A stretch of DNA of 64,000 nt from an uncultured Acidobacteriota bacterium (GCA_963709325.1 CAVPVV010000003.1:192329-256328), one strand, 5' to 3'. Shown: positions 8,739 to 33,123, numbered from the stretch's first letter. Notes: generated from the letters alone by a model not told the origin. Program-made: numbers and translations.

Positions 8739-8757
8739 GCAAGGTGGTCAACCCCGT

Positions 8758-9282: not shown

Positions 9283-9283
9283 G

Positions 9284-9541
9284 TTGCCGATCGCCGTCAA
9301 ACTCGACGATCTCCTCCACGATCGGCGGATGACGCTGACCGAACTCGCGGATCGGGTCGGAATGACGCTCGCCAACCTCTCGATCCTCAAGACCGGCAAG
9401 GCGCGGGCCATCCGCTTCTCGACGCTCGATGCGATCTGCGAGGCCCTCGCGTGTCAGCCCGGCGACATCCTCCGCTTCGAGCCGGCGCAGGCAGTTCGCG
9501 AGCCAGCGGCAGCGACAGGCAAACGAAGCGCAAGCCGATGA
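9284..9541 (+). CDS. XRE/Cro-type helix-turn-helix transcriptional regulator (YozG-like)
   Basis: TTG start. MPIAVKLDDLLHDRRMTLTELADRVGMTLANLSILKTGKARAIRFSTLDAICEALACQPGDIL is a full-length match to the small HTH_26-type regulators that accompany DUF2975. Confidence 0.8.
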   Translation: MPIAVKLDDLLHDRRMTLTELADRVGMTLANLSILKTGKARAIRFSTLDAICEALACQPGDILRFEPAQAVREPAAATGKRSASR

Positions 9542-9641
9542 ATTCGTGACGCCTCATCCACATGACGAGGGCGGAATGGTCGGCGGGCGCTCGGCGTCAC
9601 AACGGTCGTCTCAGCCACCCTGGCGGCGCGCGACCTGTGGA

Positions 9642-10049
9642 TTACACTCCAGAGAGCGTCAGGAACACGGCCTGTTGTGCCCCGGCATGCGGAGTGACGG
9701 CCTTCTCGTCGGTCCGCCATCCAGCTGCCGACGCGCGAAGCAGCATCCCGACGCCGGCCGTCAAATCGTCGAACACGAAGCCGCCGTCTTCATCCCAGAC
9801 GCCGCACGGGGTTGTCTGCGTGACGCGCTGGCCCGCGTGCTGTCCGGCCACCACTTCGACAATGGCGTCAGCAACACACGCACCGGTCGCGTCGACCACC
9901 ATTCCCCAGAGCCGCACCGGCGCCTGCGCTGTCGAAGCGAGAGGTGAATCGGGACCGGTCGGGCCTCCCGCCGAACATCCGGCCACGATCACGCTCGCCA
10001 GGACGACGGGCAAGGATCTCAAGACAATCGCTCGAGTCATGGCTGGCAC
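9642..10049 (-). CDS. lipoprotein with carboxypeptidase-regulatory-like (Ig-like) domain
   Basis: Lipobox SVIVAGCS. The beta-sandwich style segment is LWGMVVDATGACVADAIVEVV...GGFVFDDLTAGVGMLLRASAAGW. Confidence 0.5.
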   Translation of the reverse strand: MPAMTRAIVLRSLPVVLASVIVAGCSAGGPTGPDSPLASTAQAPVRLWGMVVDATGACVADAIVEVVAGQHAGQRVTQTTPCGVWDEDGGFVFDDLTAGVGMLLRASAAGWRTDEKAVTPHAGAQQAVFLTLSGV

Positions 10050-10119
10050 ACCTCAAACTGCTTGGAACGACGTCGGAAGCCGAAGCAAACCGGCGCCGCA
10101 AAAGTGTGACCCTGGCCGG

Positions 10120-10148
10120 ATGCTAGTCCCGAATCAGCTCGATGTCCA
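10120..10148 (-). promoter_or_regulatory. predicted promoter (TGGACA-17-TAGCAT, minus strand)
   Basis: The minus strand reads TGGACA (10148-10143) and TAGCAT (10125-10120), about 70 nt upstream of the ATG at 10049. It overlaps an 8-bp stem-loop at 10139-10158. Confidence 0.35.
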
Positions 10149-10165
10149 CCGACATCGAGGAACGC

Positions 10166-11590
10166 TTACCAGCCGAGGCTGACTCGCCGCAGGATGCGGG
10201 CTTCGAATACCTGGCCGAGGGGAAACTGTGTGCCGGTGCGATAGGCGTATGACAGCTGGAGCCGTGTCGCCGGGACGACCGGCATGTCGGTGGTCAGGCG
10301 CAGGGCACGCAACAGCTGGCCGTCCCGGTTGGTGATACCGAGCTCCGTTTCGCCGGTCAGCGCCGTATTTTCGATCAGGGCCACGCGGCCGCTGACTTTC
10401 GAGTTCACGCCGGCGCCGGTCGGAGAGGATCCCGCCGTGAGCGCGGCGCGCAGGTCCGGGCAACCCGCGCATCGGGTCGCCATCGACGGGAGATCGAGCT
10501 CGACCCGGGACGAGCCCCGCTCGACTCCCTCCGGCGCCGAGTCCGACATCCGCAGATACACGTAGCGCACCGCCATCTTGCCGGGCCCGCGCTGCCGCCA
10601 TTCGAGCGAGGTGACGTCCGACTCCCGAGACGCCGTCGCCTCGCGCTGCCGGAGGGCCGCCATCTGCCCGCTGCGGAGCCCGTCATAGGCTACGCGGAGC
10701 GATCCCAGCGCCGTGTCGTCGGCATCGGGTTCGTTCGACGGGCGCGACAAGCTCGTGAGCGCGGCAAGCGTGAGGCCTGGCAACGGCTGCACCTGTGCCT
10801 GCGCTGCTTCGCGGTCGCGCGATGAGACCAGCGCTGTGGCCGTGCCGACCGGGGCGGGTGCGCCGCGCAGCACGCTGGTCTCGATCCCGGCCCGGGGCCA
10901 CTGGCCGACAAGGCGAGCAGATGTCAACGGAGCCCAGGGGGCGTCGGCGCTCCCGGCCATTCCGAGGTCAGTCAGCACGGTCACGTTGTCGACAACCTTC
11001 GCCCGGATCGCGGTTCCGACGCTGGTCGGCGCACCGGGCGAACCGCTGGGCATCACGGCCTGGGGCGTGACCGACAGGCGGGCGGTCGGGTTGAAGCTCA
11101 CGGCGGCCGCGGCCAACGCCGGTGAGCCTGGCGCCTGCGTAGCCGACGCTGCGACGGGCATCTGCCCGAACGACACGCTCAATGGCGCACTGCCGGTGGT
11201 CGTGAACGTCAGTCCGCGCACCGGAGAGGCCAACGCCGATCCTGCGAACGGTGCGGAGCGGAAAACGGCCGGAAGCGGCTGGTCGCCGACCCGCGACGAC
11301 ACTGACAGCGTCGCGAGCTCGAGGTCCGGCAGTTCCAGCACGAGATTTCTCACCCGGGGCCCGCTGCCGTCGTCGGTCACGGAGAGGGACGGCAACGCCA
11401 GGCCGCGATCGGTTGCCGGCCTGGGCTTGAGAGCATCGATGCTAATCCGTGACATCGTGATGCCCGAGCCGAGCGAGGCCACGGTCGTGGACATGTTCGC
11501 CTCCTGCGCGGCGGCCAGGACGCGCGTCGTCAGCAGGCAAACGGCCAACACGGCGGCGACTCCGGTGATGCGCTGCACGGCTTTGTTCAA
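10166..11590 (-). CDS. secreted hypothetical protein, possible outer-membrane beta-barrel
   Basis: Signal peptide MNKAVQRITGVAAVLAVCLLTTRVLAAAQE. The body is rich in Ala/Ser/Thr/Pro. The C-terminus (QLSYAYRTGTQFPLGQVFEARILRRVSLGW) ends in an aromatic residue. I recognise no family. Confidence 0.45.
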   Translation of the reverse strand: MNKAVQRITGVAAVLAVCLLTTRVLAAAQEANMSTTVASLGSGITMSRISIDALKPRPATDRGLALPSLSVTDDGSGPRVRNLVLELPDLELATLSVSSRVGDQPLPAVFRSAPFAGSALASPVRGLTFTTTGSAPLSVSFGQMPVAASATQAPGSPALAAAAVSFNPTARLSVTPQAVMPSGSPGAPTSVGTAIRAKVVDNVTVLTDLGMAGSADAPWAPLTSARLVGQWPRAGIETSVLRGAPAPVGTATALVSSRDREAAQAQVQPLPGLTLAALTSLSRPSNEPDADDTALGSLRVAYDGLRSGQMAALRQREATASRESDVTSLEWRQRGPGKMAVRYVYLRMSDSAPEGVERGSSRVELDLPSMATRCAGCPDLRAALTAGSSPTGAGVNSKVSGRVALIENTALTGETELGITNRDGQLLRALRLTTDMPVVPATRLQLSYAYRTGTQFPLGQVFEARILRRVSLGW

Positions 11591-11662
11591 GACCCGTGCA
11601 TCGTATCGGTCATCGGCGTCGTCGCGACATCGGGCAAAGGGGGGAGAAGCGCCGGCCCCCTG

Positions 11663-12790
11663 TCAGGGCAGGCTGACCGCGAGCCCGAACGCGCCCAGCA
11701 ACTCATTCGTCGTGAACGTGCAGTGGCCGTAGCGGTCCACCGGAATCGGGAGGAAGCGGCCGCGGTCGAACAGATCTACCTTCGGCAGGTACAGCAGTTC
11801 GTGTCCGAACGGCACCAGGTCGTCCCGCGTCGTGTGCAGTGTCACGAGAGGGATGCTCAGGTCTCCGCTCGTCTCGTAGTTGCCGAGGGCCTGCAGGGCC
11901 GCCGGCGACGCAGAAAAGCGGCGGACTAGCAGGTTCAGCCGAAGGTCGTTGCTCGACCCGAAATACCATGTGAACCGGTTGCCAAATGGGTTCCCGCCGA
12001 GTTTCTGCCGCGCGTCGTTGGTGGCGACGACGTTGGAGGTCAGCACGTCGAACGTGGTGTTGAGGATCGTGAGCGGAGTGGCCGGGTCGAAGGCTGCCTT
12101 CGACACGCGCATCAGGTCAAGCGCCTTGCCTGGATTTGCGACCAGCGCCGCGGCAACTCGCGGCTTGTAGACCGATTCCCAATCGACGATGACCTCGGCT
12201 GGAATATCGATCGCCGAACCGGGAATGATTCCGGGGAAGAAGTAGTCGAACAGGACGCGGAAGTCGCCGACGTAATTGACCTGCAGCCTGAAATTGCCGA
12301 TCGGGGCACAGGCGGCAAAGGCGCTCGCGAACAACTCCGGCGAGCGCTCGGCCAGGAGCGTCGCGACGAGCCCGCCTTCGGAGACGCCGGCGATATGGGT
12401 GCGTGTCGGCGGCGGGTGCCTGGCGTCGAACGCCGCCACGAGCTCGCGGACATCGTCCACGCCCTCCAGGATCACCAGCCCATTCTGGCGATAACTCGTC
12501 GTCGCGAAGGCAAACCCAAGCGACACGAGCACGACCGGCAGTGACGTGCCGTCGTTGGTCGACAGCTGATAGAAGTCAAGAGGCAGGAACGGCGCCACGA
12601 AACCGTGCGCATAGACGACCAGCTGGCCGTTCCATCCGACTGGCGGGACGCAGATGAGCGACCGTGCGCCGCTTGGCAGGACACCGAGCTCACATCCGGG
12701 GGGCAGCGCCTGCGCGGTCGCCGGCGACGGCAGCAGGAGCAGGAGGGCGAGGACAAGCGTTCCGAGCGACGCGCGGAGGATCGCGCACAT
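11663..12790 (-). CDS. secreted alpha/beta-hydrolase-fold protein
   Basis: ATG at 12790 gives the signal peptide MCAILRASLGTLVLALLLLLPSPATAQA. The nucleophile elbow is HIAGVSEGG (GxSxG). The ORF track extends to 13033 across the intergenic region, which is unlikely to be coding. Confidence 0.6.
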   Translation of the reverse strand: MCAILRASLGTLVLALLLLLPSPATAQALPPGCELGVLPSGARSLICVPPVGWNGQLVVYAHGFVAPFLPLDFYQLSTNDGTSLPVVLVSLGFAFATTSYRQNGLVILEGVDDVRELVAAFDARHPPPTRTHIAGVSEGGLVATLLAERSPELFASAFAACAPIGNFRLQVNYVGDFRVLFDYFFPGIIPGSAIDIPAEVIVDWESVYKPRVAAALVANPGKALDLMRVSKAAFDPATPLTILNTTFDVLTSNVVATNDARQKLGGNPFGNRFTWYFGSSNDLRLNLLVRRFSASPAALQALGNYETSGDLSIPLVTLHTTRDDLVPFGHELLYLPKVDLFDRGRFLPIPVDRYGHCTFTTNELLGAFGLAVSLP

Positions 12791-21060: not shown

Positions 21061-23271
21061 TTGCGGGTGTATAACAGCGGTGTGTCAACGGTGTCAAGGC
21101 TCCCGAGGGAAAGCCTGGGACGAGCGCGGCCGCCGCGACGTCACACCGTGCTGCTGGCCGCCGCAGCGATCGGGCTTTTCAGCGTCGCGTCCTGCAGCGA
21201 GTCGCGTCCGCCATCCACCGCCCGGCACCTCGTGCTGGTGACGATCGACACGTTGCGCGCCGATCGGGTTGGCGTCTACGGCGGCGGCGACCTCACGCCT
21301 CGGCTCGATCGGATCGCCCGCGAGGGCGCGTTTGCGGCCGACGCCATGAGCCACGTCCCGCTGACCCGTCCCTCGCATGCGACGCTATTGTCCGGCCTCC
21401 TGCCCTGGCAGTCGGGCGTGCGCGACAACCTCGCGCCGGTCGACTTACCTTCGTCCCCTCTCCTCGCCGAGATCCTGAAGTCTGCCGGCTTTCGTACCGC
21501 GGCATTCGTGTCGACGATGGTGCTGGAGAGGCGAGGCGGGTTCAACCGCGGGTTCGATCGTTACGACGACGCGTTTCCGAAGGCCCAGGGTGCAGAGATG
21601 CTGGCGACGCTGCAGAAGCCGGGCGCCGAGTCGTTACGGGCGGCAACTGGCTGGCTCGAGGCCCAGGGCAAGGCGGATCGACTCTTCGTGTGGCTGCACC
21701 TGTTCGAGCCGCACGATCCCTACGAGCCTCCAGAGCCCTACGCGACGCGCTATCGCGATCGGCCGTACGACGGTGAGATCGCGTATGTCGATACGCTCGT
21801 CGGACAACTCGACGACACCCTCGACCGCCTCGGCTTGAAGTCGAACACGCTTGTCGTCGTCGCATCCGATCACGGTGAGGGCCTGGGCGAGCACGAAGAA
21901 ACGCTGCACGGCTTCTTCGTGTACCAGACGACGCTCGCGGTGCCGATGATCTTCCGCGGCCCAGGTGTCCGCGGCGGTGGGCGCATAACCGGTTCGGTCG
22001 GGCTCGTGGACGTCATGCCGACGGCGCTCGAGTTGCTGGGGGTGCATATCCCGGAGAACTTCAAGCCCGCGGGCGTCAGCCTGGCCGCCGAACTGCGCGC
22101 CGGGACCGGGTCAACCGACACCGTCCACTACGCGGAATCGCTGGTGCCGCTGCTGCATTTCGGGTGGAGCGATCTCCGCGTCCTTCGCAGCGGCGCGTGG
22201 AAGTACGTGCTCGCGCCGAGGCCGGAGCTCTACGACCTCTCCGCCGATCCCCACGAACGGACCAACCTCGCCGGCGAGCAGCCGGCCCGCGCCGAGTCGT
22301 TTCGGAAGACGCTCACGAATTTTCTCGAGCAGGAACGCCGCGTCAGCGCCGACGTCCAGGCACGCACCGTTCCCGCGGGCCTGCTCGAGCAGCTGGGCGC
22401 GCTCGGTTACGTCAGCGGTGTCGGAGACCCGTCGACGATCAAGGCATCGGGAGCCGACCCGAAGGACAAGATCCTCGAGTTCCGTCGCGCCAACCAGGCG
22501 ATGCGCGATGGCCTGCTGGCGCTGAATCGGCACGAGTATTCGTCCGCGGCCGACCAGTTCGGCGCGTTGCTCGACAGCGGCATCGAGAGCTTCGAGGCGC
22601 ACCTCTATCTCGCGCGCGCGTTCGCCGGCATGAAGCGCTTCGATCGAGCCGCGCCGCACTTCGAGGAAGCTTCGCGACGAGGGCCGCTCGTCGAAGAGGC
22701 GTGGACCGGGTGGGCCGAGTCGCAACTGAGCCTGGCCGGCCCCGAGGCGGCGCTGGCCATCGTGCGCGACGGCCGCCGCCACAACCCCGGGGGAGCGCAG
22801 CTGGCGCTTGCCGAGGCCACCCTGTGCCTCCGGCTCCGGCGCGCCGGGGAGGCGGTCGCCGCCTACAAGTCGGCCGCGTCACTGTTACCGAACGACGGGA
22901 ATGTCCGCCAGCAGCTCGGTGAGTTGCAGCGCGATCTCGGCCGGGTTGACGCGGCGCTCGCCACGCTCCGCGACGCGGTCGCCGTCGATCCGGCCAATGC
23001 GTCGGCATGGAACGCCCTGGGGATGACGCTGGGAGGTGCCGGGCGCTTGAATGAAGCGGAGGACGCGTTTCGACACGCGATCGAGCGAAACGGCCAGGAT
23101 CACCGCTATCACTTCAACCTCGGGCTCGTGCTGGTCCGGCAGGGCCGCGGCGAGCTGGCACGTCCATCCTTCGAGCGGGCCCTGCAGCTGACGCCCGACT
23201 TCGCGCCAGCCCGTGACGAGCTTCGCAAGCTCGCCGCCGACCGCGGCGGATCGCACGGGGATGGCTCGTGA
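21061..23271 (+). CDS. sulfatase-like (alkaline-phosphatase superfamily) hydrolase/transferase fused to TPR repeats
   Basis: LVLVTIDTLRADRVGVYGG, PLTRPSHATLLSG and VVASDHGEGLGEH mark the AP-superfamily core. The C-terminal ~280 aa are TPR-like. The start is uncertain (TTG 21061 or downstream GTGs). A possible lipobox is FSVASC. Confidence 0.75.
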   Translation: MRVYNSGVSTVSRLPRESLGRARPPRRHTVLLAAAAIGLFSVASCSESRPPSTARHLVLVTIDTLRADRVGVYGGGDLTPRLDRIAREGAFAADAMSHVPLTRPSHATLLSGLLPWQSGVRDNLAPVDLPSSPLLAEILKSAGFRTAAFVSTMVLERRGGFNRGFDRYDDAFPKAQGAEMLATLQKPGAESLRAATGWLEAQGKADRLFVWLHLFEPHDPYEPPEPYATRYRDRPYDGEIAYVDTLVGQLDDTLDRLGLKSNTLVVVASDHGEGLGEHEETLHGFFVYQTTLAVPMIFRGPGVRGGGRITGSVGLVDVMPTALELLGVHIPENFKPAGVSLAAELRAGTGSTDTVHYAESLVPLLHFGWSDLRVLRSGAWKYVLAPRPELYDLSADPHERTNLAGEQPARAESFRKTLTNFLEQERRVSADVQARTVPAGLLEQLGALGYVSGVGDPSTIKASGADPKDKILEFRRANQAMRDGLLALNRHEYSSAADQFGALLDSGIESFEAHLYLARAFAGMKRFDRAAPHFEEASRRGPLVEEAWTGWAESQLSLAGPEAALAIVRDGRRHNPGGAQLALAEATLCLRLRRAGEAVAAYKSAASLLPNDGNVRQQLGELQRDLGRVDAALATLRDAVAVDPANASAWNALGMTLGGAGRLNEAEDAFRHAIERNGQDHRYHFNLGLVLVRQGRGELARPSFERALQLTPDFAPARDELRKLAADRGGSHGDGS

Positions 23272-25571
23272 CCCGCGGCTGGACTCGACGGGGCGCGGCG
23301 ATCGCCGCCGCCCTTGTCGCGCTTGGCAGCGGCTGGTTCGTTCTCCGAGGACAACTTCCCTACTTTCGGACGGCCGCTCCGCGCAACCTGCTCCTCGTCT
23401 CTCTCGACACCGTCCGCGCGGATCATCTCGGCAGCTACCGGTATGCCGCGGCCCGGACGCCGCGGATCGATGCGCTGGCCAACGCCGGCCTCCGCTTCGA
23501 GCACGCGACAACGGTCGTGCCGCTGACGCTGCCGGCTCATTCCTCGCTGATGACCGGCACGTTTCCCGGTTGGCATGGCGTCCGCGATAACGGCGGCTTC
23601 TACCTGGACGACGATCAGCTGACGCTCGCCGAGGTCCTCAAGCAGCAGGGGTATCGCACCGGCGGTTTCATCGGCGCGTTCGTGCTCGATCGGCGCTGGG
23701 GAATCGGGCAGGGCTTCGATCGTTACTTCGACGAGTTCGATCTCGACAAGTTCGCCGACGCCGCGTCGATGGACATGATTCAGCGGCGCGGCGCGGACGT
23801 CGTCGATCGCGCGCTGGCCTGGCTCGGGGAGAACCGCGAACAGCGCTTTTTCGCCTGGGTGCATCTATACGACGCCCACACACCGTACGACGCGCCTGAC
23901 GACGTGCAGTCGCAGTTCCCGCGCACCAGGGACGGTGCCTACGATGCCGAGATCGCGTACGTGGACCTGCAGGTCGGCAGGCTGGTCGATGCCCTGCGCG
24001 CCGACGGCCGGCTGTCGAATACCTTGATCGTCGTGGTCGGCGATCACGGAGAAATGCTCGGCGAACACGGCGAGGCGACGCACGGCTTCTTCATCTACGA
24101 AGCGGCCACGCGGGTGCCCCTCATCATCAACGGCCCGGGCGTGCCGGCCGCGGTGATTGGCGATCAGGTCCGCATCGTGGATGTGATGCCTACCGCGCTC
24201 TCGCTCCTGGGCGTCGCGGTGCCCGCGGCGGTGCAGGGCGTGGATCTGATGCCTCTCTCCAGGGGGGAAGCGCTCGACCTCGTCGCCCACAGCGAGAGTT
24301 GGTACCCGCGCTACCACTACGGCTGGAGCGAGCTGCGCTCGATCCAGGACGGACGATTCAAGCTGATTCAGGCTCCGCGGCCGGAGCTGTACGACCTGGC
24401 GGACGATCCGGGCGAGGAGCACGATCGCTCGGCTGGCGAGACCGCCCGGCGCGACGGTTTCGCGCGCGCGCTCAAGGCGTTCGAAGGCCGGACCGCACGA
24501 GAGGGTGCGGACCGAGGTCCGCGGCCGATCGATTCCGAAACGGAGGAACGGCTCGCCGCGCTCGGATACGTTTCCGGTCGCGTCAACCCGAAGCGGCTGG
24601 ATCAGCCCGCCGGCGGCGATCCCAAAGACAAGATCGCGCTGTACAACCTCCTCAAGCAGGCCGCCAGCCTCTCCATCGAGGGGAAACTCGACGACGCGGC
24701 CGCGGCGGTCAGGACGGCGCTCGCCGAGGACCCTGACATCGTCGAAGCCCACATGGTGCTCGGCAATATCTACAAGAAGATGAACCGCCCCGAGGACGCG
24801 ATTGCCGCCTATCGCGCAGCGCTCGCGCGAGACGACGAACACCAGAACGCGTTGTTCAGCCTCGCCATCGCCTACAAGGACGAAAGGCGCTTCGACGAAG
24901 CCCTGGTCGGCTTCGAACGGGCTCGTGCGCTCGATCCCAGGAACGGGAAGGTTCTGTGGCAGCTGGCCGATTTGTGGATGCGCCAGGGAGACCCCGCTCG
25001 CGCCGAGGCCGTCGTCCGGGACGCGCTCGAGCGACAGGTCGATGAGCCGCGATTTCTCCTCAAGCTGGGCGAGATCTGCATCGAGGAGAAACGGTTCGAT
25101 GAGGCCGAGCAGGCGATCGGGCGGGCGCTGGAGAAGAAACCAGGCCTGGTGCTGGCCCACTACGATCTCGGGCTCGTTCATGAAGGCCGGGGCGAGATCG
25201 AGAAGGCGATCGACGCCTACCGGACGGAACTCACGGGCAACACGACGGCCTATCGCGCGGCCTTCAACGCGGCGAAGCTGATGCAGAAGACTGGCCGCAC
25301 GAAGGAGGCGATCACGTATTTCCGCAAGGTTGTCGAGATCGAGCCGGCATTCGGCACCGGTCACCTCTATCTCGCACAGGCGCTTTTCGAAACCGGCGAT
25401 CTGGATGGCGCCGAGCGGTGGGCGCGAAGCGGCCTCGAGAACCACCCCGAACCACGATTGACGCCGCTCGGTCACTACGTGCTGGCGGACGTCTACGAAC
25501 AACGCGGACGCATGGCGGAGGCGAAACGCGAGATCGCGGCCGCCGAAAGGCTGAAGACACGGCAGCCGTAA
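23268..25571 (+). CDS. sulfatase-like hydrolase/transferase fused to TPR repeats (paralog of the upstream gene)
   Basis: GTGA overlap with the upstream gene. The motifs are LLLVSLDTVRADHLGSY, PLTLPAHSSLMTG and VVGDHGEMLGEH. There are multiple C-terminal TPRs (EAHMVLGNIYKKMNRPEDAIAAYRAALARD...). Confidence 0.8.
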   Translation: MTRGWTRRGAAIAAALVALGSGWFVLRGQLPYFRTAAPRNLLLVSLDTVRADHLGSYRYAAARTPRIDALANAGLRFEHATTVVPLTLPAHSSLMTGTFPGWHGVRDNGGFYLDDDQLTLAEVLKQQGYRTGGFIGAFVLDRRWGIGQGFDRYFDEFDLDKFADAASMDMIQRRGADVVDRALAWLGENREQRFFAWVHLYDAHTPYDAPDDVQSQFPRTRDGAYDAEIAYVDLQVGRLVDALRADGRLSNTLIVVVGDHGEMLGEHGEATHGFFIYEAATRVPLIINGPGVPAAVIGDQVRIVDVMPTALSLLGVAVPAAVQGVDLMPLSRGEALDLVAHSESWYPRYHYGWSELRSIQDGRFKLIQAPRPELYDLADDPGEEHDRSAGETARRDGFARALKAFEGRTAREGADRGPRPIDSETEERLAALGYVSGRVNPKRLDQPAGGDPKDKIALYNLLKQAASLSIEGKLDDAAAAVRTALAEDPDIVEAHMVLGNIYKKMNRPEDAIAAYRAALARDDEHQNALFSLAIAYKDERRFDEALVGFERARALDPRNGKVLWQLADLWMRQGDPARAEAVVRDALERQVDEPRFLLKLGEICIEEKRFDEAEQAIGRALEKKPGLVLAHYDLGLVHEGRGEIEKAIDAYRTELTGNTTAYRAAFNAAKLMQKTGRTKEAITYFRKVVEIEPAFGTGHLYLAQALFETGDLDGAERWARSGLENHPEPRLTPLGHYVLADVYEQRGRMAEAKREIAAAERLKTRQP

Positions 25572-25592: not shown

Positions 25593-26105
25593 ATGCGCCG
25601 CCCACCCGTGGCCCTGCTGGTCGTGCTGACCGTGTGCACGTCCTGTGCAACGGCCCCAGCTGCGACCTCAGCCGTTCGTGCAGCGACCGGACCCACCAGC
25701 GATGCACGCGCGATTGTCGTCACACCGGACGATCTGGCCTACTGCGTCGCGGTGACCAATCGATACCGTGCGTCGCTGCGACTCGACCCTCTCGGCCGCT
25801 CGACCGAGGCGGAAGGCTACGCCGCCGCTTCGGCTCGCGACGACCACGCACGTCGCAAGGCCCACCATCGATCGTCCGGCCGCAACCGCCCTCGAGGCGC
25901 GTTCGCCGAAAACGAGGCGCTCCGCTGGTCGTTCGAACAGGCCGGCGGCTCGGCGCGAACGTTCATCGATCGTGCGCTGGCGATGATGTGGGCCGAAGGG
26001 CGTGGCGGAGGCCATTACGAGAACATCCGCGGCAAGTGGCGCGTGCTGGGCTGCGGGCTGTATGCAGACAAGTCGCGGATTACGCTGGCGCAGCACTTCC
26101 GTTGA
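25593..26105 (+). CDS. secreted CAP/SCP (PR-1-like) domain protein
   Basis: Lipoprotein-like signal LLVVLTVCTSC. CAP-type motifs are VTNRYRASLRLDPL... and GGGHYENIRGKWRVLGCG. Confidence 0.6.
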   Translation: MRRPPVALLVVLTVCTSCATAPAATSAVRAATGPTSDARAIVVTPDDLAYCVAVTNRYRASLRLDPLGRSTEAEGYAAASARDDHARRKAHHRSSGRNRPRGAFAENEALRWSFEQAGGSARTFIDRALAMMWAEGRGGGHYENIRGKWRVLGCGLYADKSRITLAQHFR

Positions 26106-26111
26106 CTCTCG

Positions 26112-26915
26112 ATGGCACCTCCCGAGCCGTACTCTCGTGACCACGAGCACATGACAGACCGCGACGATCTGCTGGCCCGCGCCGAGACACACGCATCGGC
26201 GTGGGGTGTCACGCCTGAACAGGTCGTTCACACCACTGGCTCCGTGTGCGTGTTCGGCCGCTGGCGCGGGATCGAGGTCGTGCTGAAGGTCGTTCGCCGT
26301 TCGACCGACGAATGGTTCACTGGTTCGGTCCTGGAGGCGTTCCAGGGAGCAGGCGTCGGGGACCGCGAAGCCACAGCTGTCATCGCCGGCGTGATCGCGC
26401 GAATGGAGCCCGGGCCGCCGCCAGCAACGGCGCCGCCAGTGGAGTCGTGGTGTCGAAGCTTCGAGCGGCACGTAAGCGCGCCGCCCAGCGGAATTCCGAA
26501 GGCGCTGTTCGATGCTGCGCATGACACGTATCGCGCGCTCTGCGCCTCGCAGTCTGCGGTTCGCCTGCTCCACGGCGATCTGCACCATCGCAACGTGCTC
26601 TCGGACTCCCGCAAGGGCTGGGTAGCCATCGATCCCAAGGGAGTAGTCGGAGAAGTGGCCTTCGAAGTTGGCGCGGCGCTGCGGAATCCGTGCGAGCGTC
26701 CCGACATCTTCGCGGACCCGCTGACGATCCGGGAACGGGTCGATCACTTCACGCGGGCGCTGAGGCTGGACCGCGGGCGCCTGCTTCAATGGGCGTTCGC
26801 GCAGGCGGTCCTCGCCGCGGTCTGGGAATGGGAAGACTCTGGTGCGCTGAGTGCCGGCCACGGCTGGCTCGCGTTCGCCGGGGCCATCCGAAACAACCCC
26901 GCCACCTGCTATTAA
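26112..26915 (+). CDS. APH(6)/StrB-like phosphotransferase-fold protein (kinase-like)
   Basis: The catalytic-loop region LLHGDLHHRNVLSDSRKGWVAIDPKGVVGEVAFEVGAALRNP matches aminoglycoside 6-kinase-type enzymes. The N-lobe looks shortened. An alternative start is ATG 26151. Confidence 0.6.
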   Translation: MAPPEPYSRDHEHMTDRDDLLARAETHASAWGVTPEQVVHTTGSVCVFGRWRGIEVVLKVVRRSTDEWFTGSVLEAFQGAGVGDREATAVIAGVIARMEPGPPPATAPPVESWCRSFERHVSAPPSGIPKALFDAAHDTYRALCASQSAVRLLHGDLHHRNVLSDSRKGWVAIDPKGVVGEVAFEVGAALRNPCERPDIFADPLTIRERVDHFTRALRLDRGRLLQWAFAQAVLAAVWEWEDSGALSAGHGWLAFAGAIRNNPATCY

Positions 26916-26925
26916 TAGCGTTGCC

Positions 26926-28146
26926 ATGGTCTCCACCGATGCAGTTCCCAGACGCATCCTCGCTCTCGACGGCGGCGGTGTCCGGGGCATGCTCACCCTC
27001 CAGTATTTGCGCGCGGTCGAGACAATTCTTCGCGCCCGCTACGGGCGACCTGACTTCCGGCTGCACGAATACTTCGATCTGATCGGCGGCACGTCGACCG
27101 GCGCCATCATCGCCGCCGGGCTTGCGCTCGGCAGGAGCGTTGACGAGATCGAGCGCCTCTATCGCGACCTCGCGACCCGAATCTTCACGAAACCTTGGTA
27201 CTCGATCGGGGCATTCACGCCAAAGTTCGGGCACGCCTCACTGGTGCGCGCGCTGCAGGACGCGTTCGGCGCCGACACGACGCTCGGGTCCGATCGCCTC
27301 AGGACCGGCCTCCTCGTGATCGCCAAGCGGATGGACTCCGGCAGCCCGTGGGTGGTCACCAATTCTCAGCACGATCCGTATTTCTCGCCCGTCGCCGGTC
27401 AGAAGCGGGTCGGCAATTGCAACATGCTGCTCTGGCAGGTCGTGCGAGCTTCGACCGCCGCGCCGCATTACTTCCGGCCTGAGGCCCTGGTGGTCGGGTC
27501 GTGGCTGGACCCCACCACCGGCAGGCAGGTCAGCGCGTCAGGTGAGTTCGTGGATGGCGGCGTCACCCCTTTCAACAACCCCGCGCTTCAGTGTCTCCGC
27601 GCAGCCCTCATGCCGGCGTACGGATTCAACTTCACGCCCGGAGAGAAGGCGCTGTTGCTCGTGTCCGTCGGTACCGGCTTGCGCCGTCGCGGCGCCGGCA
27701 AGGCGGCAGGCGTCCAACGCGTGTCCAGCGTCTATGCGTTCAACGCCTTAATCGCCCTGATGGACGACTGCACGACCGACGTGGAGCTCGCCCTCCAGTG
27801 GCTGTCGCGCAGTGACACGGCTCGGCGAATCGACAGCCTCGTCGGCACGGCCGAAGGCTCCCCGCCCTTTGGCCAGCCGCTCCTCACCTACCAACGCTAC
27901 AATCTGCGCTTCGAGTTGGAGCGGTTCCGAGACGCGCTGCCGGCGAGGCTGCCCCCGAAGATCGCCGACACGATTGTGGAGCAGGTGAAGACGTCCTATA
28001 CGCAGGCGGTGCTCGATCGGTTGTCGTTGATGGACCGGCCGAAGAACATGCCGGAGCTGAAAGCGCTCGGCGAGATCGCCGCGCAGCTGGTCCGGCCCGA
28101 GCACTTCCCGGCGGATTTCGATCGCTGGCCTGTGCCAACCCGGTGA
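26926..28146 (+). CDS. patatin-like phospholipase
   Basis: ATG at 26926 (the ORF-track frame opens at 26851). The oxyanion hole is LDGGGVRG. The nucleophile is GGTSTG (Ser codon 27094-27096). The catalytic Asp is in FVDGGVTPFNNP. Confidence 0.9.
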   Translation: MVSTDAVPRRILALDGGGVRGMLTLQYLRAVETILRARYGRPDFRLHEYFDLIGGTSTGAIIAAGLALGRSVDEIERLYRDLATRIFTKPWYSIGAFTPKFGHASLVRALQDAFGADTTLGSDRLRTGLLVIAKRMDSGSPWVVTNSQHDPYFSPVAGQKRVGNCNMLLWQVVRASTAAPHYFRPEALVVGSWLDPTTGRQVSASGEFVDGGVTPFNNPALQCLRAALMPAYGFNFTPGEKALLLVSVGTGLRRRGAGKAAGVQRVSSVYAFNALIALMDDCTTDVELALQWLSRSDTARRIDSLVGTAEGSPPFGQPLLTYQRYNLRFELERFRDALPARLPPKIADTIVEQVKTSYTQAVLDRLSLMDRPKNMPELKALGEIAAQLVRPEHFPADFDRWPVPTR

Positions 28147-28150
28147 CCCT

Positions 28151-29489
28151 ATGCCCCGACACATCTTCATCAGCCTCAATCACGCCGACGAGCCGATCGC
28201 CGTAGCGCTCAGTGACATGTTCAAGAGCCTCTTCGGTGATTTCCTGAAACCGCACTACTCGCCGAGCACCAAGCTCGAGAGCGGCATCGACTCGGGCGCT
28301 GACTGGTTCCAGTGGATCGTCGACAAGGTCGTCGCCTGCGACTTCGCATTGATCCTGGTGACACCCTCGTCCGTGCACCGGCCGTGGATCCTGTGGGAAG
28401 CCGGCGCCGTGGCCGGCGCCGCCCTCGGGTCCCAGTCGGGGCAGGCACTGGGGAAAGTGCGTCCGCTTATCTACAATCTGCCCACGGACATGATCCCTTC
28501 GCCGATCCGCGACTCGAAGGTCCAGTTCCGGCGCGGCGACAGCCGGTCCGATATCAAGCGGCTGATGCAGGAAACCCTCTATCAGTATCGAAACGACCCG
28601 GAACTGGGCGCCGATCGAGTCACAGAGTTCGGAGGATTGGTAGACGATGCCGTCGGCACCTACCTCGGGCGCGTCAACAAGGCGCTGCTCGACGCGCCGG
28701 CCGTGCCAACCGTCACGATGCTCGACGAATGGCGCCAGCGGCTCGACGATGTGCTGCGACAGAACAGGGCGTCGGAGGTGAGGCACCTGCACGACTGGAT
28801 GGACATCGCCTTCGGCCGCAACGGTGAGAAGAACCCGCGACCGCTCGATCTGCGAATCCACGCCCGGCTTGGAGAGATCTACATGAAAGCGCGCGAGTAC
28901 GAGCGCGCGATCGAACAGCTCGAACAGGCCCGGGACCTGGCGCCGCGCGATATCTTCGTGCTGCGGACCCTTGGCAGTGCCTACCTGGAAAAGAACGACA
29001 AGCGCGAGTCGGTTCAGGGCATCCTCGACCGCATCGGCGAACTCGACAAGGACGCCTTTCGCCACAACACCGAGTGCGCGGCGCTGCAGGGACGCTTCTA
29101 CCGCTCGGGTGGCGACTCGCGGAAGGCGGCCGACGTCTATCGCGCGGCGCTCGACGTGAATCCCGAGTCGCACTATCTGGCGACGCTGGTCGCCGAGGCC
29201 AGCCTCGAAGCCGGGGACCGCGACGGGGCGACGGTCGCCTACCGGCGGGTGCTGGACATCCTGTCCCGCCTCAACGAAGCCAATACCTGGACGCACGCCA
29301 GCGCCGCCAACGCCCAGTTCTTCCTCGGGAACGAGACCGGGCTGGCGCGCGGAGATCGACGCCATCCGCCAGACGAAACCGGGCGCCGATCAACTCGCCG
29401 CTATCGAACGCGGACTTGAAACGGTGTCGAAGCACGTGGACGGTGGCGACACGCGGCTTCGCCAGGTGCTGGCTACGCTCCGGACATGA
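28151..29489 (+). CDS. TIR-domain protein with C-terminal TPR-like repeats (one apparent +1 frame break near 29342)
   Basis: The N-terminus IFISLNHADEPIAVAL...CDFALILVTPSSVHRPWILWEAG fits the bacterial TIR (TIR_2-like) fold, with a conserved Glu at codon 28397-28399. Residues ~235-400 are TPR-like helical repeats. After FFLGNETG the sensible sequence WRAEIDAIRQTKPGADQLAAIERGLETVSKHVDGGDTRLRQVLATLRT* continues in the next frame and ends in an ATGA overlap with the next gene. Confidence 0.75.
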
Positions 29490-30382
29490 GCGCAATTTCT
29501 CGCGCGCTGAGCGATGCGTGGCAGGCCCAGGCCGAGTGGTCGGCCCGCGCCAGCACGCTCAAGACCCGGATTGCCGGGCAGCGTTCCAGGGTCCTCTATC
29601 TCCTGGCAGCGGCGGCCTTCTTCGGCGGCCTTGCCGCGTGGCTCACGGCGGCCGGCACGGCGCCGGGCGCACGTGTTCGGGCCGTGTCCGGCACCTCCGC
29701 GATCCTGGCGGCACTCGCGGCCACCATGCAACGGGCCGCAGGCCAGGTGAAAACGGTGGAGCAATGGAACCGGGCCCGCTCGGTGTCCGAAGCGCTCAAG
29801 GAAGCCGTCTACCGCTACCGCACCGGCACCGGCCGGTATGCAGCCGACCGCGACAACGCGCTCAGGGGACGGGTTGAAGAGATCGTTCAGCGCGCGCAGG
29901 ACCTGCTTGCGATAACAGTCCCGACTAAGTCGCCCTCGCGTGAGCCCCCGCCAGACCTCGACGCCGCGGCATACGTCGAGCGGCGGGTAAAGCAGCAGAT
30001 CGACGGCTACTACCTGAAACAGGTCGCGACGCTGTCAGCCAGCCGCGCGCGCTGGCAACTCGCAGAACAGGGTCTGCTGTACTCCGGCGCCATCATCGGG
30101 GCGCTGGCCGCCTCCCTGCCTGCCGCCTCGCTGGCCCCGTGGGTGGCCGTCGCCACGACAATTGCCGGAGCAGTCGCCGCGCAGGCCGAGGCGTCACGTT
30201 TCAGCCACCTGATCGTGTCGTACCAGGCGACGGCGGATCGCCTCCGCGCCATCGAGTCCAAGTTCACGGACGATCGGGATCGCGGGTTGACGATCGACTT
30301 CGAGGTGCTGGTCAATCGCGCCGAGGACGCGATCTCGGTGGAGAACCAGGCGTGGATGGCGGCCTGGTCGCGGAATGCGTGA
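29486..30382 (+). CDS. tandem SLATT/DUF4231-type 2TM membrane protein
   Basis: There are two modules. Each has a helix, then two TM segments, then an amphipathic helix. Module 1 is AEWSARASTLKTR..[LYLLAAAAFFGGLAAWLTAAG][VSGTSAILAALAATM]..VEQWNRARSVSEALKEAVYRYRTGTGRY. Module 2 is YYLKQVATLSASRARWQLAEQ[GLLYSGAIIGALAASL][WVAVATTIAGAVAAQ]..FSHLIVSYQATADRLRAIE. Confidence 0.65.
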   Translation: MSAISRALSDAWQAQAEWSARASTLKTRIAGQRSRVLYLLAAAAFFGGLAAWLTAAGTAPGARVRAVSGTSAILAALAATMQRAAGQVKTVEQWNRARSVSEALKEAVYRYRTGTGRYAADRDNALRGRVEEIVQRAQDLLAITVPTKSPSREPPPDLDAAAYVERRVKQQIDGYYLKQVATLSASRARWQLAEQGLLYSGAIIGALAASLPAASLAPWVAVATTIAGAVAAQAEASRFSHLIVSYQATADRLRAIESKFTDDRDRGLTIDFEVLVNRAEDAISVENQAWMAAWSRNA

Positions 30383-30391
30383 AGCGGATGA

Positions 30392-31255
30392 CTACGGCGA
30401 GATCGCCAGAGACGGGTAGGTGAACAACAGGAGATGAATGGTGTTCAGGCCGGCGTGAGCCAGAATGGCCGCGGCGATGGAGCCCGTGGATGCGTAAATC
30501 CATCCGTACCCAATCCCCGCCACCGCTGAGACCAGCACGTACACCGGCCCGCCGGCGATGTGGGCGACGCCGAACAACAGTCCTCCGACCACAATCGCCA
30601 GCACGCTCCGAGGATCGGCACGACGCTCGGCCAGCGTGCTGTGAACGACGCCGCGGAACGCGGCTTCCTCCGGCAGCGCGGTCAGCACCAGCATGATGCC
30701 GAGCCACATCGGCCACCACGAGGGAAGCTTGGGATCCCAGCGCAGGTAGCCAGTCGCCAGCGCCACGACGATGGCCGCAGCGACGACCATAAGGAAGCGA
30801 GCAAGAGACGCCGCCAGTGGTCGCGGCCCGCGGTCCTCCTGCACACGTTCGGGCACATACAAGCCCAGCAGGACCAGTCCCGCGAGGGCTTTGTCGACGT
30901 TGAGGTATTGCGTGTAGGGAACGGCGCCCGGCGAGAGCACGACGTGGTCAATGACCACCGGATTCGCAAATCCAGGCAGCACGTGCAGAAACAAGCCGGT
31001 CGTCACCGCAAGGACGTAGGCATGCGCCAGCCACCTGATTACTGAGTGACTCCCCTGATGAGCGTATGCGGCAGCGGCGGCCAACCCGAGGACGATTGCC
31101 AGGCCGGTGCCATTCACGAATCCCTCGACAACCGCGAATCCGATCGCCGCGAGCGCCGGTAACGTCCAGATGCGTCGCGCTGCTATCCCGGCGAGATCGC
31201 GGGGCCACCACAAGCCTGCGGCGGCCAGACTCAGGAACCAGAACGTCGCCGGCAT
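30392..31255 (-). CDS. CPBP-family intramembrane glutamic endopeptidase (CAAX protease/Abi family)
   Basis: Polytopic membrane protein with the family motifs LPEEAAFRGVV, FGVAHIAGG and AILAHAGLN. Confidence 0.8.
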   Translation of the reverse strand: MPATFWFLSLAAAGLWWPRDLAGIAARRIWTLPALAAIGFAVVEGFVNGTGLAIVLGLAAAAAYAHQGSHSVIRWLAHAYVLAVTTGLFLHVLPGFANPVVIDHVVLSPGAVPYTQYLNVDKALAGLVLLGLYVPERVQEDRGPRPLAASLARFLMVVAAAIVVALATGYLRWDPKLPSWWPMWLGIMLVLTALPEEAAFRGVVHSTLAERRADPRSVLAIVVGGLLFGVAHIAGGPVYVLVSAVAGIGYGWIYASTGSIAAAILAHAGLNTIHLLLFTYPSLAISP

Positions 31256-31374
31256 CAGCGTGCCGGCAGCGACTTCATCATCTCTATCCCGATCGCCACT
31301 GTCGCGATGCTAGCACTCATGAGGTTGCTTCCGGGGCCGCTCTGATTGCACGATGCTTGCAAGGACACGCCCTC

Positions 31375-33123
31375 GTGAAACGCCGCCGTTTGCCGGTCCC
31401 GGACACAGCCTGGCCTCCGCCGCCATCGTCCGACGAGCCGGAAGTCACGCTCTTCAACCTCCCTGGGCCGCGGCGAGCAGGTGCCAACGTCGTGGACGTC
31501 AACGGCGCTCCCCGCCTCAACATTGGTGGGAGATCCATTGCCCCGCCTACGTCGCCGGTTGACGTACTGCCGGCGGATGAGGTGACAGGCCTCCAGGATT
31601 TCGAGTTCGAACGGCGCGACGATTTCCCCCTCGAACAGATCGCGCCCCGTTCAGGGAAGCCGCGATCCGCGGATGCCGAGCTCAATCGGAACGACGGCCC
31701 CGCCCGAGTGGAGCCGCAAGCGCCACCGACACTTGCAGCTGAGCCAGACCGAGCGCCAACGCCGCCAGTTGTGCAGCAGCCTGATCCAACAGACGAGGCA
31801 GCCGGTCTGGACGCGTTTGTCGCAGAACTGGACGCGTTTGCCGCAGAGACTGTGGCACATGAGCTGGAGCAACCACGAATCGAGGATCTGGATCTCGGAT
31901 CGCGGGAATCGCACGCTCCTTTCGCTAGGGATATCGGGGGGCCGGTCGGGCCAACGCCACCCGCCGAGGCGCCGTTTGTTGAGCATGAAGGCGACACGGC
32001 GTGGCCGAAGACCGGACCGCTGCCGGCAATCACTTTCAATGCCGAGCCTGAGAGCCGCTCCCGAGCGAGGAAGATCGCTGCGTCCCTGGCAGCCGTCGCG
32101 GCGCTCGTGTTGTTCGCATTCGCGGTGCTGTTGATTCTGCTGGCCAAGGCTGACGAGTTCATGGCGCGGAAATCGGTCTCGCCGTCGTCCGACGATTCAT
32201 CAGCGCCGGCAGCTGCAGGTGCAGATCGGGATGCTGCTCCACCGCCCGACGCTCCTTCGACAGCACCCAGCGTGGAGACACCTGCAGCGGCGGTTGCCAC
32301 TGCTGGCATCGCCACCCCGCGTGACAAGGACCGGTCGAAGGACGCCGAGACCAGCAGTCTGGGGATCTCGGGGTCGGACACCACTCCAGCCGCCGCTACG
32401 CCGCCCGTGACGGCCCAACCGAAGAGCACAGCGCCAGCGAGCCGTCCATACGCCTCCGAAACGACGGCGCCGCGACCGACGACGGTCCGACCGCCTGCGC
32501 CAGCCATATCGGCCGCGTCACGACCCACACCGCCGCCTCCGCCACCATCGACCGGAAGATCACCAGGTGCGGCGACGGCACCACCGGCATCGATGGCGAA
32601 CTCGAGTTCCGCGGTCGCGCCCGCCACGCCGCCGGCGCGAGAGACCGCCCCGACAGCAAACGCCCGCTCCGAGCCGCCTCGCTTCATCCCTGACCCACCG
32701 ATCGCTGAACCGGTTGCGGAGGACACCGAACGGCCGCGGACCGAGCCGGCACCAGTCGCCCCTGCTCCGCCGCCTGCCGCGGCAGCGAGAGAGCTGACCG
32801 CCAGCGAAGGCATGGCCGCGGCGCTCGAACAGCTTCAGATGGCCTACGCGCGTCGCGACGCGGCGAGGGTGAAGGAAATCTGGCCCTCGGTCGACGCCCG
32901 GGCCCTGTCCAAAGCGTTCGAGGGGCTGCGCGCGCAGACGCTTACCTTCGAGGCCTGTCAGACTCGTGCGGAGGCTCGCACCGGCGAAGTTGCATGCCGC
33001 GGCGAAACGACCTACGTGCCGCGGGTCGGCGGCCCGGACCCGAGGACCGAGTCGCGGCAATGGCGATTCCGGATGGCAAAGCGCGGTACAGGCTGGGTGA
33101 TCGATAGCGTCACGGTGCGCTGA
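31375..33123 (+). CDS. Pro/Ala-rich single-pass membrane protein with C-terminal NTF2/SnoaL-like domain
   Basis: The frame opens at 31066 but there overlaps the CPBP gene on the other strand, so GTG 31375 is proposed as the start (low certainty). The TM helix is KIAASLAAVAALVLFAFAVLLILLA. About 230 aa of low-complexity P/A/T/S follow. The compact C-terminus is ALEQLQMAYARRDAARVKEIWPS...WRFRMAKRGTGWVIDSVTV. Confidence 0.5.
   Translation: MKRRRLPVPDTAWPPPPSSDEPEVTLFNLPGPRRAGANVVDVNGAPRLNIGGRSIAPPTSPVDVLPADEVTGLQDFEFERRDDFPLEQIAPRSGKPRSADAELNRNDGPARVEPQAPPTLAAEPDRAPTPPVVQQPDPTDEAAGLDAFVAELDAFAAETVAHELEQPRIEDLDLGSRESHAPFARDIGGPVGPTPPAEAPFVEHEGDTAWPKTGPLPAITFNAEPESRSRARKIAASLAAVAALVLFAFAVLLILLAKADEFMARKSVSPSSDDSSAPAAAGADRDAAPPPDAPSTAPSVETPAAAVATAGIATPRDKDRSKDAETSSLGISGSDTTPAAATPPVTAQPKSTAPASRPYASETTAPRPTTVRPPAPAISAASRPTPPPPPPSTGRSPGAATAPPASMANSSSAVAPATPPARETAPTANARSEPPRFIPDPPIAEPVAEDTERPRTEPAPVAPAPPPAAAARELTASEGMAAALEQLQMAYARRDAARVKEIWPSVDARALSKAFEGLRAQTLTFEACQTRAEARTGEVACRGETTYVPRVGGPDPRTESRQWRFRMAKRGTGWVIDSVTVR

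Follow-up and report, generated by a model that had tools for sequence, protein, structure and literature searches.

In a 64,000-nucleotide (nt) stretch of DNA from an uncultured Acidobacteriota bacterium (GCA_963709325.1, CAVPVV010000003.1:192329-256328), referred to below as the window, three co-directional open reading frames (ORFs) are tightly packed between positions 26926 and 30382. They encode a patatin-like phospholipase (gene 1), a protein with an N-terminal TIR domain followed by TPR repeats (gene 2, TIR-TPR) and a membrane protein consisting of two SLATT modules (gene 3). An earlier note on this DNA, made from the sequence alone, had described the trio as a candidate TIR-based abortive-infection system. 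The operon packing given there was reproduced by ORF calls and by the sequence: gene 1 ends with its stop at 28146 and gene 2 starts at 28151, leaving a 4-nt gap, and gene 3 starts in an ATGA that overlaps the stop of gene 2 after repair of a frame break in the latter (Table 1). Scans of the locus for promoters and terminators gave nothing above background.

Table 1. Features of the cassette and of the genes next to it. Positions are counted from the first letter of the window; homologous loci are designated L followed by a number.
Feature	Position	Strand	Basis or remark
Gene 1, patatin-like phospholipase, 406 amino acids (aa)	26926..28146	+	Pfam Patatin, PADLOC, NCBIfam
Gene 2, TIR-TPR protein, 445 aa after removing one G	28151..29489	+	Homologue coverage, L005 alignment, AlphaFold (predicted local distance difference test, pLDDT, 89.9)
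TIR domain of gene 2, residues 1-150	28151..28600	+	TIR_2 family matches, Foldseek
Helical TPR solenoid of gene 2, residues ~188-400	28712..29350	+	TPR_2, model helices, PDB matches
Frameshift site, one extra G in GCGCGC-GG-AG	29351..29352	+	Translations in both frames, L005 nucleotide alignment
ATGA, start of gene 3 overlapping the repaired stop of gene 2	29486..29489	+	Sequence
Gene 3, tandem SLATT membrane protein, 298 aa	29486..30382	+	Pfam, NCBIfam, BLASTP, hhalign
SLATT_3/DUF4231 module of gene 3, residues 18-145	29537-29920	+	DUF4231 6e-11, SLATT_3 3.5e-5
SLATT_1 module of gene 3, residues 163-290	29972-30355	+	Pfam SLATT_1 3.7e-16, NCBIfam SLATT_1 7.7e-23
APH(6)/hydroxyurea-kinase-like gene, 10 nt upstream of gene 1	26112-26915	+	Pfam, profile positions 90-251 only (C-terminal)
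CAAX/Rce1-like (CPBP) intramembrane protease gene, convergent with gene 3, 9 nt apart	30392-31255	-	Conserved beside the L005 cassette, not at other trio loci

Gene 1 carries a complete patatin catalytic set

Profile searches with Pfam and NCBIfam confirmed the patatin, TPR and SLATT families proposed for the three proteins, and TIR_2 at the level of the gene 2 family, at E-values well under those expected by chance. Gene 1 was matched by Pfam Patatin (PF01734) with E=1.7e-24 and 87.5 bits (cutoff 27.7). The catalytic set that had been read from the sequence is complete and corresponds to the PF01734 signature: a Gly-rich oxyanion motif, DGGGVRG (residues 15-21), the nucleophile Ser57 in the G-x-S-x-G motif GTSTG (residues 55-59; Ser codon 27094-27096), and the dyad Asp210 in D-G-G (residues 210-212; codon 27553-27555). 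All three motifs are invariant in 120 of 120 homologues. With 7,822 proteins at E<=1e-10, this is a very large family. In the C-terminal ~180 aa, no Pfam domain was matched.

The best PADLOC match of gene 1 was a phospholipase effector (9.3e-44) of the cyclic-oligonucleotide-based anti-phage signalling system (CBASS). The cassette shares with CBASS systems using CapV a patatin phospholipase with the same catalytic set, and its best matches in PADLOC and NCBIfam are CBASS lipases. Unlike CapV, gene 1 differs in its C-terminal half and scores below the cutoff of NCBIfam CBASS_lipase (113 bits, cutoff 200; aligned model positions 2-212 of 317 only), and the operon contains no CD-NTase (cGAS/DncV-like nucleotidyltransferase). 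No CBASS cyclase was found among the six genes from 25593 to 31255 (Pfam) or the four PADLOC-scanned proteins, the part of the window to which the cyclase scan was confined. At the system level, no model of PADLOC v2.0.0 fitted the trio, which gave generic effector matches only (phospholipase; 'TIR-TM', 6e-9; two-transmembrane, 2TM, 0.003).

Gene 2 is frameshifted in the window

As sequenced, gene 2 stops at 29419 and encodes 422 aa, the last 22 of which are out of frame, and the public annotation carries this truncated product (P0001). The +1 frame continues as a plausible protein to a TGA at 29487-29489. The frame break, suspected before, holds up in comparison with the family: the repaired protein is covered to 100% by 102 homologues of ~440-445 aa, and the nucleotide alignment with the syntenic Vicinamibacterales locus L005 revealed a single extra G at 29351/29352 in the window. 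This base removes the last 45 residues of the protein and breaks the stop/start overlap with gene 3. A programmed frameshift was considered and rejected, since close orthologues are intact.

The identical 4-nt overlap between TIR-TPR and SLATT genes was found in L002, L004, L005, L011, L029, L033, L084 and L089. The ATGA suggests that genes 2 and 3 are translated together, and because it recurs across loci, translational coupling of the two appears to be a conserved feature, broken here by the frameshift.

The window copy may therefore be impaired or inactive, unless the extra base is an assembly error. That the cassette is, in this genome, a decaying and non-functional remnant, in which a genuine frameshift truncates gene 2 and uncouples the translation of gene 3, is a lesser but serious possibility. 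The extra G relative to intact orthologues and the equally truncated annotated product fit this explanation, and in the relative L009 the SLATT gene is interrupted by an in-frame stop, so that such cassettes do decay. However, the patatin and SLATT genes of the window are intact and 94-95% identical to their L005 orthologues, the lost tail is the least conserved region of the gene 2 protein (mean pairwise identity 0.31 vs ~0.50 elsewhere), and a one-base indel in a GC-rich run is a common assembly error.

Two other loci contained disrupted genes. In L009 (8239-9228) the SLATT gene beside TIR-TPR is split by the in-frame stop into 8239-8508 and 8509-9228 and has apparently decayed. In L032 (6980-11071) TIR-TPR is seemingly frameshifted or fused into a 1,362-aa ORF, and the TPR part lies in another frame (7848-8396).

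Gene 2 combines a predicted TIR fold with a conserved TPR solenoid

The N-terminus of gene 2 was matched by Pfam TIR_2 with E=3.2e-5 and 24.8 bits, just under the cutoff of 28. Among the aligned members of the TIR-TPR family, TIR_2 matched 46 of 46 (best 1.8e-13), and only 3 of the 46 touch ThsB_TIR. A Foldseek search with the full-length AlphaFold model was dominated by TPR matches, so the TIR domain was modelled separately. The model of residues 1-160 (pLDDT 82.6) contains strands A-E and helices A-E, and all of its top 33 matches in the PDB (E<=1e-3) are TIR domains. They include BtTir (7uxr, E=9e-6), TIR-APAZ of SPARTA (template modelling score, TM, 0.65-0.67), AbTir, TRAM and MAL. A sequence search of the PDB with the TIR region gave no match.

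The candidate catalytic residue Glu83 (codon GAA, 28397-28399), pointed out in the earlier note together with a TIR-like fold, belongs to an invariant motif, P-W79-I-L-W82-E83, with which helix C of the model begins. E83 itself is invariant in the 46 sequences. The motif is in register with the W-x-x-x-E of the experimentally studied ThsB TIRs in the part of Table S1 covered here from Yirmiya et al., a December 2025 preprint (bioRxiv 10.64898/2025.12.03.692087) in which Thoeris was widened to eleven verified types. Judged by Pfam and by its modelled fold, the N-terminal domain of gene 2 is a genuine TIR.

The TPR-like repeats noted before were borne out as well. Pfam TPR_2 matched residues 236-267 with E=3.5e-12, the AlphaFold model (pLDDT 89.9) forms an all-helical solenoid over residues 188-392, and the PDB matches of this helical part are TPR proteins. 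To the Pfam 'sensor' family TPR-S (PF20308), this part of gene 2 bears a weak resemblance. Gene 2 reached E=0.0012 and 19.8 bits (cutoff 27.6), and 18 of the 46 family members were matched weakly (best 9e-5). By hhalign, the TIR-TPR profile aligned with patatin-linked TPR-S proteins over 361 collinear columns (85.5%, E=5.7e-6; the target comprises only three sequences), and this alignment places Glu83 on a conserved Glu of the TPR-S proteins. Pairwise BLAST of gene 2 against the same proteins was not significant.

In the TIR-TPR family, the mean pairwise identity is 0.50 for the TPR and 0.51 for the TIR region, with 38 of 170 and 30 of 150 columns, respectively, conserved at 90% or more, and the TPR contains many invariant charged, polar and aromatic residues. 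Conservation as strong as that of the TIR is easier to reconcile with a ligand or partner that is itself conserved than with a phage sensor under rapid evolution. The role as infection sensor that had been assigned to the TPR is thus possible, but on these alignments it is not favoured.

The patatin also points towards TPR-bearing partners. Four patatin relatives at 45-47% identity were sampled: in L083, L086 and L087 a TPR-S protein comes directly after the patatin, and L082 has neither a TPR-S partner nor a conflict-type neighbour. A 'Patatin-Tpr' assembly is listed in the part of Liu et al. 2023 covered here, as noted computationally by Burroughs & Aravind 2020. The adjacency of partners by which TPR-S-centred systems are recognised is present in the window, where the patatin gene directly precedes gene 2, and from this conserved adjacency we infer that the patatin is linked to the TPR-bearing protein. 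Like TPR-S-centred assemblies (type VIII Thoeris with ThsI/BcTpr, and Patatin-Tpr), the cassette has a patatin followed by a protein in which a TIR-like Rossmann N-domain is joined to a TPR. Unlike in these assemblies, whose N-domain is of the 'CMP hydrolase'/MAP3K_TRAF_bd type, the N-domain of gene 2 is a genuine TIR, the TPR-S match stays below threshold, and the conserved partner is SLATT. ThsI, which bears the TPR in type VIII Thoeris, is treated as an effector that perceives cyclic ADP-ribose (cADPR) (10.64898/2025.12.03.692087).

Gene 3 is a homologue of ThsH, the effector in type VII Thoeris

Gene 3 was confirmed by Pfam and NCBIfam as two consecutive SLATT/DUF4231 modules, and each module contains one hydrophobic stretch (residues 34-57 and 195-232). 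SLATT was predicted from comparative genomics to form a pore that responds to a nucleotide signal (Burroughs et al. 2015, as cited in the part of Kaur et al. 2020, eLife, covered here). According to Yirmiya et al. (10.64898/2025.12.03.692087), type VII Thoeris consists of a TIR protein (ThsB) and a SLATT effector (ThsH) and is active against phages. Only upon infection is canonical cADPR produced by its TIRs, and cells carrying the system stop growing when given cADPR, in contrast to 2'cADPR or 3'cADPR.

The TIR-domain sequence of a verified Alteromonadales type VII system was used to collect 33 related metagenomic loci. In relatives of the verified system (TIR domain 95% identical), a short ThsB_TIR protein (130-161 aa, ThsB_TIR 9e-14) precedes, at ~12 nt or less, a 290-aa protein in which SLATT_3 (3e-46) and SLATT_1 (6e-40) were matched. 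BLASTP aligned gene 3 with the ThsH relative in L049 over 259 collinear residues (E=2e-6). A profile of the window-type SLATT protein matched 17 ThsH-relative proteins at 1e-22 to 1e-27, and hhalign of the two groups gave 98.6% with E=1.2e-15. On the strength of these matches and of the shared two-module architecture and size, gene 3 is, as judged by homology, a ThsH-family protein. The earlier assessment that a pair of TIR and SLATT is uncharacterised and outside Thoeris is out of date, type VII Thoeris having been verified and gene 3 being a ThsH homologue.

The cassette resembles type VII Thoeris in that a TIR gene lies directly beside a gene for a ~290-300-aa tandem SLATT_3+SLATT_1 membrane protein, and in that the catalytic W-x-x-x-E motif of the TIR is kept. 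It differs in three respects: gene 2 joins a TIR of the TIR_2 type to a conserved TPR domain of ~300 aa, in contrast to the verified type VII ThsB proteins, which are short and ThsB_TIR-only; this TPR is as conserved as the TIR; and a second effector gene, the patatin, is added. A search for the TIR-TPR family motif (WEAGA and similar) in the covered part of Table S1 of Yirmiya et al. gave no match. In L049, a gene with a TIR of the CAP12/Pycsar-effector type (8e-30; 2558-3313) lies directly downstream of the type VII relative, forming a small defence island.

Other known systems are less similar. The statement that a ThsA-type SIR2/SLOG/Macro protein, a CD-NTase and a STAND NTPase are missing was correct for the operon. 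The SIR2 + SLOG protein ThsA of type I Thoeris has no counterpart among the operon neighbours, which are the patatin, SLATT, an APH(6)-like kinase, a CAP-domain protein and a CAAX protease. With conflict systems of the TIR-STAND/GAP1 type the cassette shares a tandem SLATT gene beside a TIR-bearing multidomain protein, as in the Caballeronia locus L044, where the tandem SLATT gene neighbours a TIR-nSTAND1-WD40 gene, an arrangement in keeping with the predicted response of SLATT to nucleotide signals. The window cassette, in contrast, has no NTPase, and its TIR is fused to TPR and not to STAND + WD40.

TIR-TPR and SLATT form the core of the cassette

A scan of one genome per species yielded 39 loci, and all ORFs therein were searched with hidden Markov models. 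The TIR-TPR gene is close to full length in 35 of the loci. Genes in the collected loci were called by a longest-ORF/GC3 heuristic (GC3, GC content at third codon positions), and the lists of neighbours are approximate except where called genes existed. A tandem SLATT gene adjoins TIR-TPR in 16 of the 35 genome loci. These SLATT-paired loci belong to Nitrospirota, Acidobacteriota, Actinobacteriota, Alpha-, Gamma- and Deltaproteobacteria, one cyanobacterium and the archaeon Methanothrix. A patatin gene is adjacent in only 5 of the 35 (L002, L005, L006, L007 and L008), and all five loci fall into a subclade with a TIR-TPR at least 49% identical to that of the window.

The complete trio occurs in L002 (Nitrospirota), L005 (Vicinamibacterales), L006 (Thermoanaerobaculia) and L008 (Acidimicrobiaceae), as well as on metagenomic contigs with called genes (L084, L089 and L090). 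Synteny of the trio in unrelated genomes, which had been made a test of the proposal, was hence found (L002, L006, L008, L084, L089 and L090). The patatin gene is flipped in L008 and the SLATT gene in L090, which argues for functional linkage rather than a frozen operon. Judged by these gene neighbourhoods, the core is TIR-TPR plus SLATT, and the patatin, previously counted as a full member, is an add-on of one subclade.

The expectation that the trio resides in defence islands held for some copies elsewhere, but not for the flanks of the window. L089 contains extra TIRs, a Schlafen-type ATPase and toxin-antitoxin genes, and in L084 a TIR/MoxR/trypsin system lies next door. On a Lichenicola plasmid, an MmeI restriction-modification system has as neighbours a ThsB TIR and a gene resembling TIR-TPR. 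In an iterative TIR screen by which all TIR-TPR genes are recovered, gene 2 was the sole TIR ORF of the 64-kb window. In 8 of the 16 SLATT-paired loci, likewise, no TIR besides TIR-TPR lies within +-7 kb.

Proposed mechanism and alternatives

The domain identities, the synteny and the homology to ThsH point to a Thoeris-type TIR signalling defence cassette, the core of which would be equivalent to type VII Thoeris; we put the probability of this interpretation at about 60%. On infection, the TIR of gene 2 would convert NAD+ to a cyclic ADP-ribose-type signal via Glu83. Since gene 2 is the only TIR in the window, its TIR must make the signal if SLATT needs a TIR-made one. The coupled tandem-SLATT protein would, by homology to ThsH, bind the signal, oligomerise in the membrane and kill or arrest the cell. 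The patatin, acquired in one subclade, may act as a second effector that attacks membrane phospholipids, as its conserved adjacency suggests, and its coupling to the TPR-bearing protein would be achieved either by the same signal or by physical contact with the TPR. The TPR itself is probably a conserved regulatory or ligand-binding module related to TPR-S and not a variable phage-recognition surface. The general idea of the earlier note, a TIR-based system with membrane-directed effectors, is supported.

Several observations weigh against a Thoeris-type cassette of this kind. Gene 2 is frameshifted in the window, and the flanks hold housekeeping and envelope genes and no defence island. As gene 2 is TIR_2 plus TPR and not a short ThsB_TIR, its product could differ from that of ThsB, or the protein could be a plain NADase. 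The collinear similarity to TPR-S proteins points to a receiver or effector role, ThsI of type VIII Thoeris being an effector. Roughly half of the SLATT-paired loci, and many other loci of the family, have a second TIR nearby, and there TIR-TPR could be a receiver or effector. By Pfam scan, the patatin has no recognisable signal-binding domain. Yirmiya et al. (10.64898/2025.12.03.692087) saw no defence from the 'SLOG-patatin' Thoeris candidates that they tested, so that a patatin effector in Thoeris is hypothetical.

TIR-TPR might instead be a self-contained sensor-effector, in which the TPR detects a phage or stress cue and the TIR depletes NAD+. No diffusible signal would then be needed, and SLATT and patatin would act in parallel or be activated by contact. 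TIR-STAND/Avs, SPARTA and TIR-SAVED effectors offer precedents, the best structural matches of the gene 2 TIR include the NADase-type TIRs of SPARTA TIR-APAZ, AbTir and BtTir, and Yirmiya et al. (10.64898/2025.12.03.692087) allow that some unverified TIR configurations are possibly NAD+-depleting effectors. Further support is provided by several loci (e.g. L014, L021, L024, L025 and L028) where TIR-TPR has no recognisable adjacent effector gene. We nevertheless regard this as rather unlikely. Without a signal, it is difficult to see why the translational coupling to a ThsH-type SLATT should be conserved, ThsH-type SLATT responds to a TIR-made nucleotide in verified systems, and the pairing of tandem SLATT with other TIR scaffolds (TIR-nSTAND1-WD40 in L044) suggests a general link from TIR to SLATT.

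Alternatively, TIR-TPR could be a receiver and effector like ThsI of type VIII Thoeris, with a TPR that binds the signal of another TIR and a fused TIR that degrades NAD+ or nucleotides. The whole-protein collinear alignment with patatin-linked TPR-S proteins, with Glu83 on a conserved Glu, is consistent with such a role, and a TPR as conserved as the TIR is what a small-molecule pocket would lead one to expect. A small ThsB-type TIR that could supply the signal is found beside TIR-TPR in L013, L018, L022, L027, L031 and on the Lichenicola plasmid. However, the window contains no further TIR ORF and 8 SLATT-paired loci have none within +-7 kb, the TPR-S match of gene 2 falls short of the threshold and is weak in the 18 of 46 members that give one, and the hhalign probability reaches only 85% with a three-sequence target. 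A receiver role is therefore plausible in loci with an extra ThsB-type TIR and not in the window; as a general explanation it appears very unlikely.

That the cassette has no defence role and is a housekeeping or stress module for membrane lipid remodelling, with the patatin in lipid turnover and the TIR in NAD+ metabolism, would suit the envelope and housekeeping genes without mobile-element or defence markers around the window and L005 cassettes and the patatin relatives without a conflict-type neighbour (L082), but it is extremely improbable given the patchy distribution across phyla including an archaeon, the swapping of effector partners between loci (SLATT, CHAT, caspase, 8xMP, S8 peptidase), the defence-island contexts elsewhere and the verified anti-phage activity of homologous TIR+SLATT systems.

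Partners of TIR-TPR in other loci

Other TIR-TPR loci contained different neighbours. In a more distant clade (L022, L023 and L034; about 8400-11690), a gene for a ~1,090-aa CHAT (caspase-like) protein lies downstream of TIR-TPR. In L022 and L034 this protein has a weak metallo-beta-lactamase region, and in L023 it was assigned by size only. nSTAND1 NTPases neighbour TIR-TPR in L012 and L023, upstream of it in the latter. The distant clade may have a different effector set for the same TIR-TPR module.

In L018 (8388-9525), TIR-TPR is followed by a small ThsB-type TIR, the octameric membrane protein '8xMP' (PF24838) and DUF7701. L031 (8393-9557) has three ORFs of sizes and positions as in L018; the first of these, the only one scanned, matched the ThsB TIR of L018. 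L016 (8297-8842) contains an 8xMP gene only. A literature search for '8xMP' in defence gave nothing relevant. In Streptomyces, a ThsB-type TIR lies just upstream of TIR-TPR in L027 (4977-6993) and L013 (5631-6101); in L027 it forms, with a caspase (Peptidase_C14) gene, a pair like that of type IV Thoeris. These two loci suggest stacked or hybrid Thoeris systems. A CbiA/ParA-like (AAA_31) protein, TIR-fused or TIR-adjacent, recurs as an apparent accessory module beside the cassette in L090 (3037-5717), L019 (8665-11552) and L089 (575-5156). The TIR-TPR closest to that of the window outside the patatin clade (68% identity) is found in the Vicinamibacterales loci L003 and L040 (7509-10662). Neither SLATT nor patatin is present there; instead, TIR-TPR is accompanied by an S8 peptidase and then a 453-aa protein with weak lipase/alpha-beta-hydrolase matches.

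Genomic surroundings of the window cassette

The cassette is flanked by genes for sulfatases, a CAP-domain protein, an APH(6)-like kinase, a CAAX protease, an ABC permease and outer-membrane proteins, and L005 has the same flanks. No tRNA or integrase was found near the locus. An origin from a mobile element was considered and rejected: no phage record with a relative was found, the only plasmid copy is a distant one, and the locus has no tRNA or integrase nearby.

The APH(6)-like gene directly upstream of the patatin gene was rejected as a member of the cassette, as its synteny is limited to L005, the closest relative, and the other trio loci lack it. It is possibly degenerate: in a tblastn comparison with L005, 263 query residues were spread over 290 columns, the L005 orthologue being ~27 residues longer. 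Further upstream, two tandem ORFs of ~740-770 aa (21061-23271 and 23268-25571, both on the + strand) overlap by 4 nt; by reading of their translations, both look sulfatase-like N-terminally and carry TPR repeats C-terminally. Downstream, a putative 685-aa Pro/Ala-rich ORF (31066-33123, + strand) has no Pfam match and is overlapped by a long antisense ORF.

Significance

The TIR+SLATT core is of a known and recently verified kind, and patatin beside TPR-S-type proteins is, in the parts of the literature seen, a known computational theme. In the literature covered, in which Burroughs & Aravind 2020 and Burroughs et al. 2015 are represented by papers that summarise them and Table S1 of Yirmiya et al. 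by its smaller part, no description was found of a fusion of TIR and conserved TPR as the sole TIR of a SLATT system, or of a ThsH-type pore and a patatin lipase in one cassette.

The TIR-TPR family might also be an evolutionary and mechanistic bridge from ThsB-type signal generators to TPR-S receivers, these being ThsI/BcTpr and, by way of MAP3K_TRAF_bd, the N-terminal part of ASK-type kinases in eukaryotes. Its members would then both make a signal and bind it (or the patatin) through a TPR-S-like pocket, as a self-amplifying switch in which one signal fires a SLATT pore and a phospholipase. This idea is speculative and, on present evidence, quite unlikely.

If an intact cassette works as proposed, Thoeris would be extended to a signal-generating TIR fused to a conserved TPR(-S-like) module, with two distinct membrane-attacking effectors under one TIR. 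The cassette is a compact test bed for the roles of TPR-S-type domains in TIR signalling, be it phage sensing, signal binding or effector docking. It also allows patatin lipases to be tested as Thoeris effectors, which the first attempt with SLOG-patatin proteins did not show. The TIR-TPR family has a wide distribution among lineages of soil and sediment, such as Acidobacteriota, Nitrospirota and Actinobacteriota, and extends to Methanothrix, groups that experimental work on defence has covered little.

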